Under the pieces are notes generated by a model. That model had not been told where the DNA came from. It saw only the letters and a program-made list of their open reading frames with translations, and ran no database searches. From NCBI GenBank assembly GCA_964603255.1, contig CAZRVA010000004.1, positions 3,532-58,688 on the forward strand: 55,157 nt of DNA, written 5' to 3'. This document shows, piece by piece, positions 3,796-50,651 of this stretch. Position numbers and translations under genes: made by a program. The DNA is from an uncultured Chitinophaga sp. Lineage in GTDB: Bacteria; Bacteroidota; Bacteroidia; UKL13-3. The stretch's first letter is position 1, and each line of letters opens with the position of its first letter.

Positions 3796-4219
3796 GCTAA
3801 TGTGTAATTTGTACTTTACGAAGTAACAAGATTACTGTTAAGCCTTGGTGTAGTGATGCTAGTTCTTTTACACCTGTTGATGTTAATTGTCGGGAAAAAG
3901 ATAATAGCAACCTACGGAAATGGTTTAATGTTGTGATTTAGTTAAACGAAATACGCACAATTGAAGGTGTTGTCTATTTTGTGTTTACAACTCAAGAGGA
4001 AGTTACTCTTTTTGTGCATCGTATTTATACCATTGAATCAGTTGTAAAGTTTTGGGAATGACGAAATATTACACGTTATTCGAATAAAACAAGATACAAG
4101 ATTTTGATGTGTATTTGTGTGGTAGAGGGTGTTAAGCAAAATGCATCATAAACCTTCTTTTTATAAATTGACAAGATATTTCTAATACCCGAACAATACC
4201 AAACCATTAATTTATTAAT

Positions 4220-7200
4220 ATGAAGAAACTTTTTTTATTGCTGCTCAGTACTATTTTGATTTCTGGTGTAAATTCTCAAAACCTTAAATTAGATAAACTT
4301 TGGTGGCAACCCAACGGACCTATTAATGCCATTGTTAAAGATACTGCAAAAAATATTGTTTACGTTGGGGGGGCTTTCAGGAGTATAGGTCCTATTGAAC
4401 CTTTTGGTGCGCAAATAGATACCACAACAGGACAGCCAGATTTCGCATTTGCCAACCCTAATGGAACAGTAAATGCTTCAGAGCCTGATGGAAATGGGGG
4501 CTGGTATGTAGGTGGTGAGTTTACCATGGTTGGTGATAGTGTTCGTAACCGAATTGCTCACATAACAAGCAAAGGAGAAGTCAGTTCTCTATTTGGTGCG
4601 GCCGGATTTGATGGTTCTGTTGCATCATTAAAAATAAATGATTCCATATTGTATGCAGGAGGAAATTTCACGGGTGTAGGTCAATTCAAAAGATATGGTG
4701 CCGCTCTCAACACAGCAGATGAAAAGGTTTTTGGTGAATTTCCTGAACCTAATGGAGGTATTAATGTTGCTACACCAGACGGAACCGGTGGTTGGTATAT
4801 AGGTGGTGCTTTTACCATGGTTGGTGATAGTGCTCGCAGATACATGGCCCACATTAATAACCTTGGAAAGGTAACCGATTGGAATCCAAGCCCAAACAAT
4901 ATGGTTCACGCAATTGCAATTTCAGGCAAAACTATTTATGCAGGGGGAATTTTTAGCTCAATTGGAGGGCAAGACAGAGGTAGAATTGCGGCTTTAGATG
5001 CCACAACAGGACTTGCAACCACATGGAATAAACATGTAACTGGTGCTGCTGTTTATTCAATTGCTATTTCTGGAGATATTGTGTATGTTGGTGGTGATTT
5101 TACTTATTTTGGAGGGCAAGCAAGAAATAGGATTGCATCTTTTGATGCTAAAACAGGACTTGTAACTTTATGGAATCCAAATGCAAACAACAGGGTTCAC
5201 TCAATTGTAGTTTCAGGTGATACAGTTTATGCAGGTGGTCTTTTCACATCAATTGGTGGACAAAGCCGGAATTACATAGCTGCAATAGGAGCTTCTACTG
5301 GCTTTGCAACAACTTGGAATCCAATTGCAAATAGTGAGATTCGCTCAATTGCTGTTTCAGGTGCTACGGTTTATGCAGGAGGTGGATTCACTTCAATTGG
5401 AGGACAAACTAGGAATTACATTGCCGCTTTAGATGCTACAACAGGGCTTGCTACTAATTGGAATCCAAATGCAAATAATCCAGTTTACTCAATTGCCATG
5501 TCAGACACAACAGTATATGTAGGAGGTGCTTTCACTGCAATTGGTGGGCAATATAGGAATTACATTGCCGCTTTAGATACTATTTCAGGTCTTGTAACAT
5601 CATGGAAGACTCATGCAAATGGTACTGTGTACTCAATTGCTGTTGCAGGCGATACAGTCTATGTTGGTGGAGGTTTTACTTCAATTGGAGGGCAAACAAG
5701 AAATAAAATTGCCGCTTTAAATACTTCTACCGGTCTACCAACTGCTTGGAACCCAAATGCAAATAATACGGTTGTTTCAATTGCTATTTTAGGAACTACA
5801 GTCTACGCGGGAGGTTATTTCACATCAATTGGAGGGCAAACAAGAAATAGACTTGCGGCATTAGATGCAACTACTGGACTCACAACTAACTGGAATCCAA
5901 ACGCAAATGACAATGTTTACTCAATGACGATATCAGGAACTACAGTCTATGCGGGAGGTTATTTTACGTCAGTTGGTGGGCAAAACAGGAATTACATTGC
6001 CGCTTTAGATGCTACTACAGGATTTGCGACAAGTTGGAATCCCAATGCTAGTTCTAGGGTTATATCAATCGCAGTTTCAGGAAATACTGTATATGCCGGA
6101 GGAAATTTCTCTACTATTGGAGGCCAAACAAGAAAAAATATCGCAGCTTTAGATGCAACAACAGGTCTTGCAACTGCTTGGGATCCATATGCAGATAATT
6201 GGGTTCACCAAATTGTAGCTTCAGGAAATAGAGTATATGTTGGGGGTGATTTCGCATTAATTGGAGGACAACCTAGAAATAACATTGCTGCACTAGATGC
6301 CACAACTGGACTTGCCACAACGTGGAATCCAGTTGTAAGCTCTCAGGTTTTATCAATTGCTATTTCAGGCACTAAATTATATGTTGGAGGTAAATTTACT
6401 TCAATTGGTGGACAAACTAGAAATAGAATTGCAGCATTAGATGCTACAACTGGGCTTCCAACTAATTGGGATCCAAATGCAAGTTATGACGTTACATCAA
6501 TTGCTATTTCAGGCGATACAGTATATGTTGGTGGAGCTTTTACATCAATTGGAGGGCAAACAAGAAATAGAATTGCTGCATTAGATGCCACAACCGGGCT
6601 CGCTACTTCTTGGAACCCAAATGTAAGTGGGACTGTTGGTCCAATTGTTGTTTCTGGTGCTACTGTTTATGTTGGGGGGGCATTCGCATCAATTGGAGGG
6701 CAAATCCGAAATAAAATTGCAGCTTTAGATGTAACAACAGGACTTGCTACTAACTGGAATCCTAATGCAAATGGTAATGTTGGCTCAATTGCTGTTTCAG
6801 GTACTACAGTTTATGTAGGCGGAAGTTTTACTTCAATTGGCGGGCAACCTAGAAATAGAATTGCAGCATTAGACGCTACAACTGGGTTTGCAAATTCTTG
6901 GAATCCAAATGCAAACGGTTCAACTAGTTCAATTGTTGTTTCAGGTACAACTGTTTATGTAGGCGGAGGTTTTACTTCAATTGGCGGGCAATCAAGAAAT
7001 AACATTGCTGCATTAGATGCTACAACTGGGTTTGCAAATTCATGGAATCCAAATGCAAACGGTTCTATTGGTTCAATTGCTATTTCAGGCACTACAGTTT
7101 ATGCTGGAGGTGGGTTTACTTCAATTGGCGGGCAATCAAGAAACAACATTGCTGCATTAGATGCCACAACAGGATTTGCAACTACTTGGAATCCGAAGCA

Positions 7201-18720: not shown

Positions 18721-19275
18721 ATGAAAAAGAAAGTATTTATTGGTATTGGTGTGTTTGTTGTGCTCCTAACCGGAGTACTTTTTTACATGCGATCTGCTAC
18801 AAAAAAGCACAGCCCAGCAGCTATTGCATCATACACTCAAAATGGATTTAACATCAACATCAATTATTGTCAGCCATTTAAAAAAGGCCGTTTAATATTT
18901 GGTCCTGCCGAAACAGGTGCATTGCAGCCTTACGGACAATATTGGCGGATGGGTGCAAACGAGGCCACTACTTTTAGCACCAACACCGACTTAGTTATAG
19001 GTGATAAAACATTACCTTCGGGAAAATACGCCATGTATGCTATACCACAACAAAATGTATGGACAATTGCATTTAACACCGAGAATGACAGATGGGGAGC
19101 AACTGCACCCGAACAAGAAAACGATGTATTGCGCGTTGATGTTCCTGTGACTGAAACTAATATTGTTACCGAACAATTTACTATAACTTTTGAAAACGAC
19201 AGCACTGCGCTAAATGCAGTAATGGCCTGGGATAACGCACTAGTTAAACTTCCCATAACATTGAGTAAAAAATAA
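18721..19275 (+). CDS. DUF2911 domain protein
   Basis: YCQPFKKGRLIFG, YGQYWRMGANEATT, GKYAMYAIP, EQFTITF, AWDN. Confidence 0.9.
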   Translation: MKKKVFIGIGVFVVLLTGVLFYMRSATKKHSPAAIASYTQNGFNININYCQPFKKGRLIFGPAETGALQPYGQYWRMGANEATTFSTNTDLVIGDKTLPSGKYAMYAIPQQNVWTIAFNTENDRWGATAPEQENDVLRVDVPVTETNIVTEQFTITFENDSTALNAVMAWDNALVKLPITLSKK

Positions 19276-19337
19276 AAGGGAAGATCTTGCGATCCTCCCC
19301 TTTACAATAGCCTATGAAGAAACCTTTTTGGTTTAAT
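19267..19337 (-). ncRNA. Candidate stand-alone small RNA (~70 nt) with anti-start-codon core GUUUCUUCAUAGG
   Basis: Minus-strand -7 box TATATTTG at 19342-19349. Terminator 19274-19303 is fully paired only on the minus strand (two G-U pairs versus two A-C mismatches on plus), has a GCAA tetraloop and a U-tract. No minus-strand CDS feeds it. 5' end is estimated. Confidence 0.65.
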
Positions 19338-19395
19338 AATTCAAATATAAACTTAATTTTAATTAAAAAAACTAAATTTTAACTTTTTTTAAGCC

Positions 19396-20934
19396 GTGAT
19401 AAAAAAAACAAGATTATCCACTCTAATCATCACTACATTATTAAGTACAAGCTACTTAACCGCCCAAAACACTTACGAGATTAAAAACCTTGGCGAATCG
19501 GTAAACTCAGAACATGCTGAGCTTAATCCTGTAATTAGTGCCGATGGTAAAAAATTGTACTTTGTGCGTTCAAACCATCCGCAGAACCAAAATCCAACAG
19601 ATGGGCAAGACATTTGGATGAGCGAAAAAGACGAAAATGGCAATTGGAAACCAGCCATTAATCTTGGCAAAACATTTAATAAACAACAGTTTAATACATT
19701 GTTTAATATTAGTCCTTCGGGCAATCGCATGCTTATTGGTGGCTCCTACAAAGATGGTGTGTATTGGGGTGTAGGTTTTAGTTTTATTGAGAAACGTGAT
19801 GGCATTTGGCGCGAACCTTATGAATTGGATATTAAAAAACTAGATAAGTTAAACAATGGTGTTTACTCATCGGCATTTTTATTACCCGATAATAAAACCT
19901 TGTTGTTAAGCTTTAGCGAGGAAGAAGAAGGTAAATTAAACGACTTATACGTTTCTAAATTGGGCAAAAACGGCCGCTGGAGCGAACCTGTTTCTTTGGG
20001 CGCTAAAGTTAATACAACCTATGATGAGTCTACCCCATTTATGGCTGCCGATGGAGTTACCTTATATTTTAGTAGCAATCGCCAAGGTGGTTACGGGCAA
20101 AACGATATTTACTTAACCCGTAGGTTAGATGATACATGGCAAAACTGGAGCGAACCGGTAAATTTAGGTCCGCAAATTAATACCGAGCAATGGGACGGTT
20201 ACTATACCATACCTGCAAGTGGCGATGTAGCCTACATGGTTTCTTACAAAAATACTTTGGGTAAAGCTGATATTGTTCAAATAAAACTAAACAACAAAGC
20301 CAAGCCTGAACCAGTTGTTTTAATAAATGGAGAAGTATTAAGTGCCGATACCAAAGAACATGTAGAAGTGCAAGTAATTTATGAGGAATTACCTTCAGGT
20401 AACGAGGCAGGTAAAACTAGTTTTTGGAGCAAAAGTGGCGACTTTAAAATCATTCTTCCATACGGAAAAAATTACGGTATTTCGGCACGTGCAGCCGGTT
20501 ATATTCCGGTTTCTGTAAATATAGATTTAACCAAGCCGGGCGAGTATCGCGAAATCAATCAAAACTTAACTTTAGTTCCAATTAAAACTGGTCAGGTGGT
20601 ACGTTTAAATAATATTTTCTTTGATGAGTACAGCGATGTTTTAAAAGAAGAATCTAAGCCTGAACTAAATCGTTTAGTAAGCTTAATGAAAGACAATAAC
20701 GGTATGAGTATTGAAATATCGGGCCACACGGATGCTGTAGGTAGCGATCAAGAAAACCAATTACTTAGTGAAAAACGTGCTAATGCGGTAAAAAAATACT
20801 TGGTTGAAAAAGGCATTAAAGAAAATAGGTTATTTAGTATTGGTTATGGTGAAACACAACCTGTAGCTGATAATAACAATGATATTGACAGGCAATTAAA
20901 CCGTAGGGTTGAGTTTAAGATTTTGAAGAAGTAA
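19396..20934 (+). CDS. OmpA family protein with PD40 (TolB-like) repeats
   Basis: Signal peptide; PD40-type repeats (NPVISADGKKLYF, TPFMAADGVTLYFSSNR); C-terminal OmpA domain (IEISGHTD, NQLLSEKRA, GYGETQP, NRRVEF). Confidence 0.92.
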   Translation: MIKKTRLSTLIITTLLSTSYLTAQNTYEIKNLGESVNSEHAELNPVISADGKKLYFVRSNHPQNQNPTDGQDIWMSEKDENGNWKPAINLGKTFNKQQFNTLFNISPSGNRMLIGGSYKDGVYWGVGFSFIEKRDGIWREPYELDIKKLDKLNNGVYSSAFLLPDNKTLLLSFSEEEEGKLNDLYVSKLGKNGRWSEPVSLGAKVNTTYDESTPFMAADGVTLYFSSNRQGGYGQNDIYLTRRLDDTWQNWSEPVNLGPQINTEQWDGYYTIPASGDVAYMVSYKNTLGKADIVQIKLNNKAKPEPVVLINGEVLSADTKEHVEVQVIYEELPSGNEAGKTSFWSKSGDFKIILPYGKNYGISARAAGYIPVSVNIDLTKPGEYREINQNLTLVPIKTGQVVRLNNIFFDEYSDVLKEESKPELNRLVSLMKDNNGMSIEISGHTDAVGSDQENQLLSEKRANAVKKYLVEKGIKENRLFSIGYGETQPVADNNNDIDRQLNRRVEFKILKK

Positions 20935-20944
20935 AGAAAGTCTA

Positions 20945-21467
20945 AACCATGATTATAATGATTTGATGAATACTATGATTTCCTAGTTGTTAGATCATAT
21001 TTGAATAGCCTATTAAATAATTTCTATGATAAACGAAAAATACCCGGAGAGCGAACTTACAGCCAAAATTATTGGTTGTGCAATGGAAGTTCACCGTGTT
21101 CTTGGAAATGGGTTTCAAGAAGTGATTTATCAACGTGCGTTAGCTATAGAATTAACCAATAATGGCATAGAATTTAGCAGAGAGCATGAAATGGAAATAA
21201 ACTACAAAGGCCAATTTATTGGTTTGCGAAGGGTTGATTTTTTTGTAGAAGGCAGAGTGATGGTTGAATTGAAAGCAGTTATTCAATTAGAAGACGTTCA
21301 CCTTGCCCAAGCTATTAATTATCTTGAAGCCTATGGCTTGCCAATTGGATTACTTATCAATTTTGGAAGTACTAGTTTACAGTTTAAACGTTTGATGAAA
21401 TCGAAATTCATCAAAAAAACATAAACCCACAATCATAGTCCATCACAAAATCATAAAAATCATAGTT
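20945..21467. mobile_element. GxxExxY cassette 1 bounded by imperfect inverted repeats (20945-20980 / 21431-21467)
   Basis: About 30 of 36 left-arm positions match the reverse complement of the right arm; arms are built of ATGATT subrepeats. Mobility is inferred, not shown. Confidence 0.5.
21026..21424 (+). CDS. GxxExxY protein (PD-(D/E)XK-like)
   Basis: LGNGFQEVIY, RRVDFFVE, VELKA, AQAINYL, GLLINFG. Confidence 0.95.
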   Translation: MINEKYPESELTAKIIGCAMEVHRVLGNGFQEVIYQRALAIELTNNGIEFSREHEMEINYKGQFIGLRRVDFFVEGRVMVELKAVIQLEDVHLAQAINYLEAYGLPIGLLINFGSTSLQFKRLMKSKFIKKT

Positions 21468-21475
21468 AAAGACAA

Positions 21476-22345
21476 CTACACTTCAAACTCTAGCGAGTAA
21501 CTTGTTTTAAAACATTCATGAGAGGGCAGCGAAAGCATGCCTTCTTTTTTTGTGATATCATCGTGTCCTTCTACGTAATCTGAATGACCAAACCAAGGCT
21601 CTAAACACACAAAACGTTGGGTTCCTTTTTTAGCCCAAATACCAAAATGAGGGAAACCATCAAAACACATTTTAACTTTATAGTTGCTGTTTTTGTGTAC
21701 CAAACTCACTTCGTTTGATTGCAAATTTTTAAACACTACAGCATCCAAATCAAACAACGCTACACTTAGCGGAAGAACTTGCTCATTGTTTAAAACAGGT
21801 TGCGTTTGGTGGTTAAATAAGCCATTTTCCAACAAGTGTCGCACTGCCAGTTCGGGTTTATTAAACCTCAATTCACATCCAGAAAAATCAGCATTAGGTA
21901 TCAAAAATCCGGGATGTGCACCAATGCTAAATGGCATAGTTTCCACTCCCAAATTATACACTTCATAACCGCAAATCAACTTATCGCCTAACCACTCGTA
22001 AGTGAGTAGTAATTTAAAATCGAAAGGAAATTTTTGCAGGGTTTCATCACTATACAATAACTGATAAACTACCTTATTTTCGGTTTGGGTTTGGATAGAA
22101 AACTTTTTATCGCGGGCAAAACCATGCTGCGAAATGGCAAAAGTTTTATCCTTTACACGCAGTTTATCGTTTTTAACTTTACCTACAATTGGAAACAAAA
22201 CCGGGGCGGTACGCGGCCAAATATCTGCATCTGCCTGCCACATAAACTCTGTTCCGTTACTGTGTTTAACACTCTTTAGCTCAGCACCATTGTTTGATAT
22301 TACAGCAGTAAAGTTTATTCCTTTAATAGTAGTTAGTTGTTCCAT
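21476..22345 (-). CDS. Aldose 1-epimerase family protein (LacX-like)
   Basis: WPRTAPVLFPIVG, QHGFARD, FSIGAHPGF, FVCLEPW. Confidence 0.92.
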   Translation of the reverse strand: MEQLTTIKGINFTAVISNNGAELKSVKHSNGTEFMWQADADIWPRTAPVLFPIVGKVKNDKLRVKDKTFAISQHGFARDKKFSIQTQTENKVVYQLLYSDETLQKFPFDFKLLLTYEWLGDKLICGYEVYNLGVETMPFSIGAHPGFLIPNADFSGCELRFNKPELAVRHLLENGLFNHQTQPVLNNEQVLPLSVALFDLDAVVFKNLQSNEVSLVHKNSNYKVKMCFDGFPHFGIWAKKGTQRFVCLEPWFGHSDYVEGHDDITKKEGMLSLPSHECFKTSYSLEFEV

Positions 22346-47395: not shown

Positions 47396-47944
47396 TTAAC
47401 CATAAAGGGAATCTAACCACGAGGGCCACTAAGAAAGCACTAGGTTCACCAGGCTGGAATAAAATAGTTGACAACCATTAAGATCTCTATGAACACGAAT
47501 AATTATACAGAAAATGAGTTATCGAAAATAGTTTTTGATGCCTCGCTTAAGGTGCACAAGGCTCTTGGACCCGGATTACTCGAGTCTGCATACCAAGAAT
47601 GCCTTTACCACGAATTGAAAAAGACGGAATTGTTTATTCAAAAAGAAAAGCCACTTCCTTTAATTTATGAAACAGTAAAACTAGATTGCGGATACAGACT
47701 AGATTTAATTATTGAAGACAAACTCATCATTGAAGTAAAATCAGTTGAAACATTAACAGACATTCATTTGGCGCAAGTACTCACCTATTTAAAGTTATCA
47801 AATTGCAAGTTAGGCCTGCTAATTAACTTTAATGTTCTTTTGTTGAAAGACGGATTCCGGAGGGTTATAAACGGTAATTTAAAATAGTGTACTTAGTGAA
47901 AACCTTTGTGCCCCTTGTGGTAAAAATCATGTCGCTGTGGTTAA
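47396..47944. mobile_element. GxxExxY cassette 2 bounded by imperfect inverted repeats (47396-47442 / 47885-47944)
   Basis: Nested complementary blocks TTAACCA/TGGTTAA, ACCACGAGGGCCAC/GTGCCCCTTGTGGT, CACTAAG/CTTAGTG, CACTA/TAGTG. Mobility is inferred. Confidence 0.5.
47489..47887 (+). CDS. GxxExxY protein (PD-(D/E)XK-like)
   Basis: LGPGLLESAY, YRLDLIIED, IEVKSV, AQVLTYL, GLLINFN. Confidence 0.95.
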   Translation: MNTNNYTENELSKIVFDASLKVHKALGPGLLESAYQECLYHELKKTELFIQKEKPLPLIYETVKLDCGYRLDLIIEDKLIIEVKSVETLTDIHLAQVLTYLKLSNCKLGLLINFNVLLLKDGFRRVINGNLK

Positions 47945-49809: not shown

Positions 49810-49817
49810 TATATTTG
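49810..49817 (+). promoter_or_regulatory. Bacteroidota -7 box (TATATTTG)
   Basis: Exact TAnnTTTG match 21 nt before the ATG at 49839. Confidence 0.45.
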
Positions 49818-49838
49818 TTTAAAACTCAAATACACGTT

Positions 49839-50651
49839 ATGAAGAAAATAGTTACTTATACTTTTGCTGGAGCGCTTGCTTTTGTGGTGTTGGGCTCGTT
49901 TACCGGAGTTAAATTTGGTAAGCGTGATGGAACAGAACCAGGCTACACAGGCTCTCCCGGAGATAGCTTAAAAAATTGCACGGTTTGTCATGGTGGCACT
50001 GCGGTTGATGTAGACGGATGGATTACTTCTACTGTTCCTCAAACAGGTTTTGTGGCCGGACAACGTTATACCATTAAAGCAACCAACACCGAAATTGGGG
50101 CAACACGTTTTGGATTTTCTGTTTCGCCACAAGCTTTAAACGGAGATTTATTAGGTACTTTATTAATTACAGATACCACCAAAACCAAATTAGTAGGTAA
50201 TGATAAATACGTAACTTACCGTGCTGATGGCGTTCAAGGGGTTGATTCGTTAAGTTGGACATTTGATTGGATTGCTCCGGCAAATGTTAATGAGGTAATT
50301 TTCTATGGTGCATTTAACTCAAACCATGAAGGACATAAAGATGGTGATAAGACCTATTTATCGCGTTTACGTTTATACAAACAAGGTTTTGTGGGTTTAA
50401 CTGAAAATATTAAGAATGACTTCTTATCGGTTTATCCAAATCCTGCAGTTGATGAAGTACGCGTAAATACGGCACACAATTTACAATCGGGAGTGGTTAC
50501 GGTGTATGATATCAATGGGAAATTGGTATTGAAACAAACTGTGAATGGCAACAACACCATAAATGTACAAAGCCTTACCAAAGGTATTTACCACATTATG
50601 CTAAGTCTTGATAATGGTAACAGCTACGCCACCAAAATGGTTAAGTTGTAA
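49839..50651 (+). CDS. T9SS type A sorting domain protein with CxxCH-containing Reeler-like (choice-of-anchor V-like) domain
   Basis: Signal peptide; TGSPGD..NCTVCHGG; RFGFS; WTFDWIAP; C-terminal VYPNPA...KGIYHIM...KMVKL. Confidence 0.85.
   Translation: MKKIVTYTFAGALAFVVLGSFTGVKFGKRDGTEPGYTGSPGDSLKNCTVCHGGTAVDVDGWITSTVPQTGFVAGQRYTIKATNTEIGATRFGFSVSPQALNGDLLGTLLITDTTKTKLVGNDKYVTYRADGVQGVDSLSWTFDWIAPANVNEVIFYGAFNSNHEGHKDGDKTYLSRLRLYKQGFVGLTENIKNDFLSVYPNPAVDEVRVNTAHNLQSGVVTVYDINGKLVLKQTVNGNNTINVQSLTKGIYHIMLSLDNGNSYATKMVKL

Follow-up and report, generated by a model that had tools for sequence, protein, structure and literature searches.

The 120-nt spacer between a DUF2911 gene and an OmpA/PD40 gene, both on the plus strand, probably encodes an independently transcribed small RNA (sRNA) of ~72 nt that is read from the minus strand and acts in trans by pairing across the start codons of its targets. 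Both genes lie in a 55,157-nt stretch of DNA from an uncultured Chitinophaga sp., all of which was analyzed and which is referred to below as the window. The sRNA gene is conserved, its functional strand is the minus strand, it is delimited by a promoter and a terminator, and it lacks coding potential; we infer that it is expressed, acts in trans, and represses its targets. According to this reading, the sRNA would be transcribed from its own Bacteroidota-type promoter, which has TAnnTTTG at −7 and faces away from the OmpA/PD40 gene. Transcription would end at an intrinsic terminator, with a U-tract that runs over the stop codon of DUF2911. The RNA would consist of three parts: a weak 5′ hairpin, the unpaired segment CUUCAUAGGCUAUU with a CAU triplet in it, and the terminator. 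The start regions of putative targets would be complementary to the sRNA stretch CUUCAUAGGCUAUUGU, and a duplex formed over the start codon of an mRNA would block initiation, as GibS and FopS do in Bacteroides.

The features of the locus are collected in Table 1. Along the minus strand, the spacer contains the TATATTTG box followed by AAUUAUUAAACCAAAAAGGUUUCUUCAUAGGCUAUUGU, a hairpin with a GCAA loop, and the tract UUUUAUUUUUU. The transcription start site was placed from the spacing characteristic of the sigma-ABfr −7 motif. The nearest upstream minus-strand gene ends at position 21476, with two plus-strand genes intervening. The −7 box, the transcript sequence, a terminator present on the minus strand only, and the absence of a minus-strand coding sequence in need of that terminator had all been pointed out in the original prediction made from this DNA, and each was found as described. 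The U-tract comes from the last codons of the DUF2911 gene, two for lysine and then the stop. The corresponding ...KK* end (AAAAAATAA) is seen only in genomes that contain the sRNA or its relic.

Table 1. Coordinates of the sRNA gene, its neighbors, and the originally proposed target site (positions in the window).
Feature	Position	Strand	Comment
DUF2911 gene	18721-19275	+	Pfam E = 1.6e-44
OmpA/PD40 gene	19396-20934	+	
Predicted sRNA transcript, ~72 nt	19267..19338	−	5′ end deduced from the −7 box; 3′ end where the U-tract stops
−7 promoter box TATATTTG (Bacteroidota TAnnTTTG consensus)	19342..19349	−	
Possible −33 element TTTAG	19372..19376	−	22 nt upstream of the −7 box; weak, inferred
Weak 5′ hairpin AAACC-AAAAA-GGUUU	19320..19334	−	putative
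Invariant unpaired segment CUUCAUAGGCUAUU, presumed seed	19306..19319	−	identical in 8/8 homologs
Anti-start-codon CAU within CUUCAUAGGCUAUU	19314-19316	−	
Intrinsic terminator stem-loop, GNRA loop GCAA	19272..19305	−	terminator scan and covariation
U-tract UUUUAUUUUUU	19265..19277	−	overlaps the last two Lys codons and the stop (19273-19275) of the plus-strand DUF2911 gene
Candidate target site of the original prediction, start of a T9SS cargo gene	4219..4235	+	possible strain-specific pairing, not conserved

To collect relatives of the locus, we scanned for OmpA/PD40 proteins, keeping one genome per species, which yielded 80 loci; further loci were added by an exact scan of metagenomes for a 20-nt core of the element and from contigs encoding DUF2911 homologs. 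Loci are designated L with a number. Eight distinct intact copies of the element were obtained: those of the window, L001, L081, L086, L002, L088, L011 (identical to L082), and L010 (identical to L083). All eight sit in the same DUF2911-OmpA spacer, so that the prediction that the core would be kept beside these two genes holds in seven other distinct lineages at the same syntenic site. The sources are uncultured, mostly freshwater Bacteroidota metagenome-assembled genomes; sRNA-bearing contigs include DITN01000026.1, FWPV01000127.1, JBFYQC010000239.1, JALONK010000012.1, and JBKDBG010000043.1. Three syntenic loci came out of the exact 20-nt scan, along with an unrelated contig poor in genes (L084), which is not syntenic and was taken as a chance match rather than a homolog. 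Within the window, the 22-nt core occurs once, with 0 matches expected at up to three mismatches. Pattern and covariance-model searches of the 55-kb window and ~750 kb of related loci revealed no paralogs.

The core of the element, ~40 nt from AAACC to GGAGG, reads AAACC-(loop)-GGUUUCUUCAUAGGCUAUUGUAA(A/G)GGG(G/A)AGG in all eight copies and varies only in the loop of the first hairpin and at two stem positions. The conserved block is bounded exactly by the −7 box on one side and by the U-tract on the other. As a measure of background divergence, we used 4-fold degenerate sites of the adjacent OmpA gene. The numbers of sites matching the window are 61 of 160 in L001, 71 of 157 in L002, 36 of 110 in L010, and 32 of 109 in L011, that is, 29 to 45% identity, compared to 67% in L086, the closest relative; in the four former loci these sites are essentially at saturation. 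In L010 and L011, the DNA that separates the element from the OmpA start cannot be aligned at all. Since the core is invariant while the OmpA 4-fold sites have diverged, the conservation of the element is more than chance.

Other relatives have lost the element. In seven loci (L003-L007, L089, and L090; an example is contig JAIXWD010000007.1), a decayed copy lies in the same place: the TAnnTTTG box is absent, the core is lost, the hairpin is weak, and the minimum free energy is −4 to −12 kcal/mol. Covariance-model scores are 79 to 106 bits for the intact copies of the eight lineages versus 21 to 37 bits for these relics. Judged from their sequences, the relic lineages are a natural loss control for the sRNA gene. 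In L008, L009, L012, and L091-L093, the spacer is only 30 to 60 nt long and does not contain the element.

The promoter is conserved together with the core. For the primary sigma factor of Bacteroidota, TAnnTTTG has been published as the −7 consensus (PMC7366714). The window, L001, L081, L010, and L011 all have an exact match at an identical offset, and the box can also be read in L086 (TACATTTG) and L088 (TATTTTTG). Thus, it is kept at a fixed offset on the minus strand in seven copies, the exception being L002, whose box is imperfect. The variants found among the copies are TATATTTG, TACATTTG, TATGTTTG, TAAGTTTG, and TATTTTTG, with TA, CA, TG, AG, or TT at the free positions of the motif. 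A TTTAG or TTTTG is located 18 to 22 nt upstream of the box in the homologs. TAnnTTTG is also kept in five orthologs of a protein gene of this lineage, ~21 nt ahead of the gene.

A consensus terminator scan of the spacer identified a 15-pair stem on the minus strand (19305 to 19272) that is closed by a GCAA loop and followed by TTTTTAC, and no terminator in the plus orientation. The minus strand folds with −24.6 kcal/mol (z = −5.6), and none of 200 shuffled sequences folded as well; the corresponding values for the plus strand are −15.8 kcal/mol and z = −2.55. Across the eight sequences, 99.4% of the cells in the terminator stem alignment are paired, and none of the registers slid by 1 to 3 columns came near the true one. 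Compensatory changes on both sides of the stem are found at five pairs (n = 8), and the GNRA tetraloop is retained in six of the eight homologs. G-U pairs occupy three stem positions in seven to eight of the sequences and occasionally three more; on the plus strand, they would become A·C mismatches.

These data bear on whether the conserved block could instead belong to the plus strand, as a leader or spacer of the OmpA/PD40 gene containing, for example, a short upstream open reading frame (ORF) that begins MKKP..., with the hairpin serving as the DUF2911 terminator. The sequence ATGAAGAAACC is indeed conserved, MKKP is encoded in 8/8 homologs, and the AAACC/GGUUU hairpin can form on both strands. 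However, the ORF beginning at ATGAAGAAACC, with its ATG at 19314, varies in length between 7 and 22 codons and is disrupted by frame-shifting indels, with the DNA beyond them still conserved, and the 17 nt upstream of the ATG are just as invariant. The A·C mismatches that would replace conserved G-U pairs, the much weaker plus-strand fold, which is not followed by a U-tract, and the conserved minus-strand −7 box, for which a plus-strand element offers no explanation, further make this alternative very unlikely. Its small-peptide version is ruled out by the frame-shifting indels among homologs. Since the terminator covaries and contains G-U pairs, the −7 box is conserved, and the plus-strand ORF is broken, function is carried by the minus strand as an RNA gene, with a promoter, a terminator, and covariation, and with no peptide. 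Together with an invariant unpaired core that includes CAU, the covarying strand-specific terminator, the conserved −7 box, and the lack of a conserved plus-strand ORF support the stand-alone minus-strand sRNA gene that had been proposed. As with intergenic sRNA genes in general, it has its own promoter and terminator, is conserved as a unit, and is noncoding.

A single-copy, highly conserved intergenic block could also act at the DNA level, as a dif-like recombination site or an operator shared by divergent promoters. The block contains a short ATAG-N-CTAT inverted repeat and may loosely resemble dif arms. That repeat is merely a 4-nt palindrome, not two 11-nt arms around a 6-nt spacer, and there is no GC-skew switch at 19.3 kb. 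The covarying stem with its G-U pairs indicates that selection acts on RNA, and in the sister lineage the block has decayed with no replacement there. We consider a DNA-level site extremely unlikely, and a dif/Xer site or operator was rejected because of the missing arm architecture, the absence of a skew switch, and the RNA-type covariation.

Upstream of the terminator, the arms of the 5′ hairpin stem, AAACC and GGUUU, are invariant in 8/8 copies, and the loop varies (AAAAA, AAAA, AUAAA, and AUAA). This putative hairpin alone is worth −2.6 kcal/mol, and there is no covariation in it among the eight homologs. The segment that follows, CUUCAUAGGCUAUU, has a predicted probability of being unpaired of ~0.7 to 0.9 in seven of the eight homologs; the exception is L010, where pairing is predicted for the four bases at its beginning (CUUC). 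The invariance takes in the GU and AA flanking this segment as well. The complement of the unpaired stretch is ...ACAAUAGCCU-AUG-AAG..., which resembles a translation-initiation region.

The ~40 invariant nucleotides exceed what a simple seed needs, and additional constraints are therefore possible, for example from a protein that binds the RNA, from tertiary structure, or from pairing with more than one target. The sRNA might even act mainly through a protein, for instance as a ligand or sponge of an RRM-type RbpB-like protein, with the invariant stretch as the binding site. An invariance extending far past a typical seed would fit such a role, and in Bacteroides thetaiotaomicron, RbpB binds the 5′ parts of FopS and GibS (PMC11697453). 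On the other hand, CAU is placed centrally in a sequence that resembles a start region, as would be expected if the RNA paired where translation initiates, and protein binding and base pairing are compatible with each other; an action mainly through protein appears quite unlikely to us.

Another way in which the RNA could act is in cis, by pairing with a DUF2911-to-OmpA/PD40 read-through transcript or with the DUF2911 mRNA at its 3′ end, thereby setting the ratio or stability of the messages. Read-through is plausible, since A·C mismatches interrupt the plus-strand hairpin and nothing but UUUACAAU comes after it; the stop codon of DUF2911 lies within the sRNA gene, and the two-gene arrangement is fixed in 8/8 lineages. 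The overlap with the DUF2911 reading frame is limited to the last 9 nt (two Lys codons and the stop), rather than the substantial overlap with an opposite-strand gene typical of cis-antisense RNAs. An antisense RNA is complementary to its partner whatever its sequence, which leaves 40 invariant nucleotides against saturated divergence unexplained, and the OmpA gene appears to have a promoter-like box of its own near its start. Cis-antisense control is thus unlikely as the main function of the sRNA and possible as a side role.

For the preferred reading, an sRNA that pairs across start codons in trans, candidate targets were sought in the window. Two had been named, at the starts of genes that encode a type IX secretion system (T9SS) tail, and the claimed complementarities proved exact. 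Positions 19313-19329 (TATGAAGAAACCTTTTT) and 4219-4235 (TATGAAGAAACTTTTTT) agree at 16 of 17 positions, the remaining difference being a G-U pair, and the match of the sRNA core to 49838-49847 is 10 nt long. The start at 4220 forms the best duplex among the 48 start regions of the window (−22.4 kcal/mol). The best duplexes of shuffled sRNAs average −16.8 ± 2.1 kcal/mol, and 1.6% of them reach the value for 4220, in a shuffle null that is generous because the sRNA complement itself looks like a start region. At 4220, the sRNA bases engaged are those of the 5′ hairpin, loop included, rather than those of the invariant unpaired segment that precedes CAU.

Neither target withstood a comparison of orthologs. 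The product of the 4220 gene consists of DUF5122 delta-60 repeats and a T9SS tail, and no close ortholog of it was found among 5.8 billion proteins; the best matches were 37 to 59% identical, and the search was dominated by delta-60 repeat proteins. As a control, the same collection yielded a 97%-identical homolog of the DUF2911 protein of the window. Without a close ortholog, the 4220 gene was rejected as a conserved target and cannot explain the conservation of the sRNA across lineages; pairing there may be a side activity limited to this strain. For the 49839 gene, the orthologs form a graded series, and all five that were fetched begin with ATGAAAAAA, including one (L094) from the same assembly as the sRNA-bearing L002. 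They use AAA, not AAG, as the second codon, the former being unpairable by the sRNA; their duplex energies with it are −6 to −7.5 kcal/mol, and the match in the window was judged to be due to chance.

The proposal that MKK starts are regulated as a class also lacks support, since the window contains four MKK starts, of which only two have ATGAAGAAA and the other two have AAA as the second codon. The only two genes of the window with a Por_Secre_tail (T9SS) domain are also the only two that start with ATGAAGAAA. This coincidence was discarded as a signal because it is not conserved in orthologs. Short start-region matches to ATGAAGAAA that are persuasive in one genome can thus be gone once orthologs are compared, which calls for caution.

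Other candidates close to the sRNA gene were rejected as well. The start of the DUF2911 gene shares UUUACAA...AUGAA with the complement of the seed in the close group and the relic lineage only, and L010 and L011 do not have it. Ahead of the PDDEXK_3 gene, AATAGCCTAT (21004-21013) provides a match of 10 nt, no more than expected by chance, and this gene is missing from most sRNA-bearing relatives. No complementarity to the sRNA is conserved in the start regions of neighboring genes, there is no susC-like gene within the 55-kb window, and no conserved target was found within the ~55 kb searched.

Almost all knowledge of regulatory RNA in Bacteroidota comes from gut Bacteroides. The locus described here would add a well-delimited sRNA gene with an exposed predicted seed in an uncultured, widespread freshwater lineage, with a relic sister lineage available for comparison, and would extend riboregulation in the phylum past gut Bacteroides. 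Should targets be found, they would reveal whether AU-rich extended seeds mask start codons throughout this phylum, in which translation does not depend on Shine-Dalgarno sites, and whether regulation once more falls on envelope proteins.

A search of Rfam 15 with the whole window gave no match at the gathering score. Searches at E ≤ 10 with 401 nt and then 84 nt around the element returned no match other than sub-threshold hits to terminators; whether the library includes FopS and GibS models is unconfirmed. Among this noise were BTnc060 (RF04184) and BTnc231 (RF04180), with 17 and 11.7 bits versus gathering scores of 229 and 80, and with a likeness confined to the terminator hairpin and U-tract. 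Their appearance indicates that Bacteroides sRNA families are present in the library. As far as Rfam shows, the gene appears not to have been catalogued before, and we file it as a putative new sRNA family.

The closest known counterparts are GibS and FopS of B. thetaiotaomicron, for which AU-rich, extended single-stranded 5′ seeds and a terminator have been demonstrated experimentally (PMC7366714, PMC11697453). More generally, sRNAs of 65 to 70 nt composed of a seed and a terminator are made from sigma-ABfr promoters and pair through AU-rich extended single-stranded seeds across start codons; the FopS RNAs, which have this length and a canonical promoter, pair at start regions and repress susC-type mRNAs, and both FopS and GibS are bound by RbpB through their 5′ sequence (PMC7366714, PMC11697453). 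The element described here is likewise intergenic and AU-rich, with the TAnnTTTG promoter seen in FopS, and it has the same architecture: a canonical sigma-ABfr promoter, a predicted single-stranded seed, and a Rho-independent terminator in an RNA of a predicted ~72 nt versus 65 to 70 nt. In FopS and GibS, a seed containing CAU pairs at or next to the start codons of mRNAs for outer-membrane and secreted proteins; here, CAU is present and the pairing is predicted. There are also differences. The R1 seed of FopS and GibS, GUGUUUUUCAUAGUAUUAG, lies at the extreme 5′ end, whereas the seed here is internal, after a small hairpin. B. thetaiotaomicron has 14 FopS paralogs, compared to the one copy found here across the window (55 kb) and related loci totaling ~750 kb. 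The host is an uncultured freshwater lineage, unlike the gut Bacteroides.

The seeds were compared using the 5′ ends of FopS-10 and GibS (GTGTTTTTCATAGTATTAG...) taken from published oligonucleotides, from which the 5′ 35 nt and 3′ 24 nt were recovered. In a local alignment that needed two gaps, GUUUCUUCAUAGGCUAUU of the sRNA matched GUUU-UUCAUAG--UAUU of GibS and FopS-10, with shuffle p values of 0.016 for GibS and 0.07 for FopS-10. This likeness is only marginally significant and suggestive, and it may reflect either deep homology or convergence on similar start regions. The link to FopS drawn in the original prediction thus stands as a good functional analogy; as homology it does not, given no Rfam match, a single copy, and a seed likeness that is only suggestive. 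That GUUUCUUCAUAGGCUAUU and the R1 seed GUUUUUCAUAGUAUU of GibS and FopS derive from an ancient, Bacteroidota-wide family of start-masking sRNAs by common descent is improbable in our estimate. Were it so, such RNAs would provide general control of envelope proteins in a phylum where Shine-Dalgarno pairing is not used, and the freshwater lineage would be the first with a member outside Bacteroidaceae.

A parallel exists farther away. MicF of Enterobacteria is transcribed divergently from an outer-membrane protein gene (ompC-micF), ends at an intrinsic terminator, and is thought to block initiation on an envelope-protein mRNA by pairing over its start region. MicF depends on Hfq and covers the Shine-Dalgarno site, neither of which is expected in Bacteroidota. 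The sRNA described here belongs to another phylum and has no sequence relation to MicF; the two are alike in being placed divergently from the gene of an outer-membrane protein.

The 3′ end of the sRNA gene, a predicted minus-strand gene lying between the DUF2911 and OmpA/PD40 genes, overlaps the end of DUF2911. Only where a genome contains the sRNA, or a relic of it, does DUF2911 terminate in Lys-Lys-stop (AAAAAATAA). Since these codons double as the U-tract of the sRNA terminator, the end of the DUF2911 protein and the 3′ end of the sRNA appear to be coupled. In a sister lineage (L003 to L007, L089, and L090), the syntenic position is occupied by the relic, a decayed copy of the sRNA gene; the −7 box, the core, and a stable hairpin are all missing from these copies, while the flanking OmpA protein is still ~90% identical. 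This lineage provides a natural loss-of-function group for comparison with sRNA-bearing genomes.

On the other side of the sRNA gene, OmpA/PD40 starts with GTG in most relatives, and TAAA(A)TTT(T)AA is conserved as a box 15 to 20 nt 5′ of this start. The box overlaps, on the opposite strand, a possible −33 element of the sRNA, and the two promoters may therefore be arranged back to back and co-regulated.

The leader of the 4220 gene, a proposed target, carries in addition ACAATACC, a match to ACAATAGCC in the complement of the seed, ~27 nt 5′ of the ATG, so that the predicted duplex would consist of two helices flanking a large loop; this could be due to chance or reflect a strain-specific target. 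All 22 nt of the core (ATACAATAGCCTATGAAGAAAC) recur without a mismatch on an unrelated, gene-poor contig (L084, Ga0209780_1013974; 43.5% GC). Neither a promoter nor a hairpin was detected around this copy, which, given the very large size of the collection, probably arose by chance.

Table. Coordinates of the features considered (window positions unless a locus is named).
Feature	Position	Remark
DUF2911 Lys-Lys-stop codons	19267-19275; same place in homologs	double as U-tract of sRNA terminator
sRNA relic	L003 3874-3948 (example)	spacer following DUF2911 stop
TAAA(A)TTT(T)AA box	19373-19396 (with OmpA/PD40 start)	
4220-gene leader	4180-4235	
Core copy	L084 1241-1262	
TATATTTG box and ATG, 49839 gene	49810-49839	
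TAnnTTTG, 49839-gene orthologs	L094-L098, around 370-401	
PDDEXK_3 gene	20990-21424	downstream of OmpA
PDDEXK_3 paralog	47468-47887	
PDDEXK_3 region compared	L086 4214-4340	

The PDDEXK_3 gene has a paralog in the window and is absent from the position after OmpA in L001, L002, L010, L011, and L089. Across the ~135 nt compared (~90 nt 5′ of the gene and its first ~35 nt), the window and L086 are 100% identical; in contrast, identity at OmpA fourfold sites is only 67%. The gene and its upstream stretch look like a recently moved cassette.

The listed TTG start of the 49839 gene, at 49815, falls within the TATATTTG box; the true start is the ATG at 49839. TAnnTTTG is retained ~21 nt 5′ of the ATG in five orthologs amid variable flanks, which provides independent support for TAnnTTTG as the working −7 motif in this lineage.
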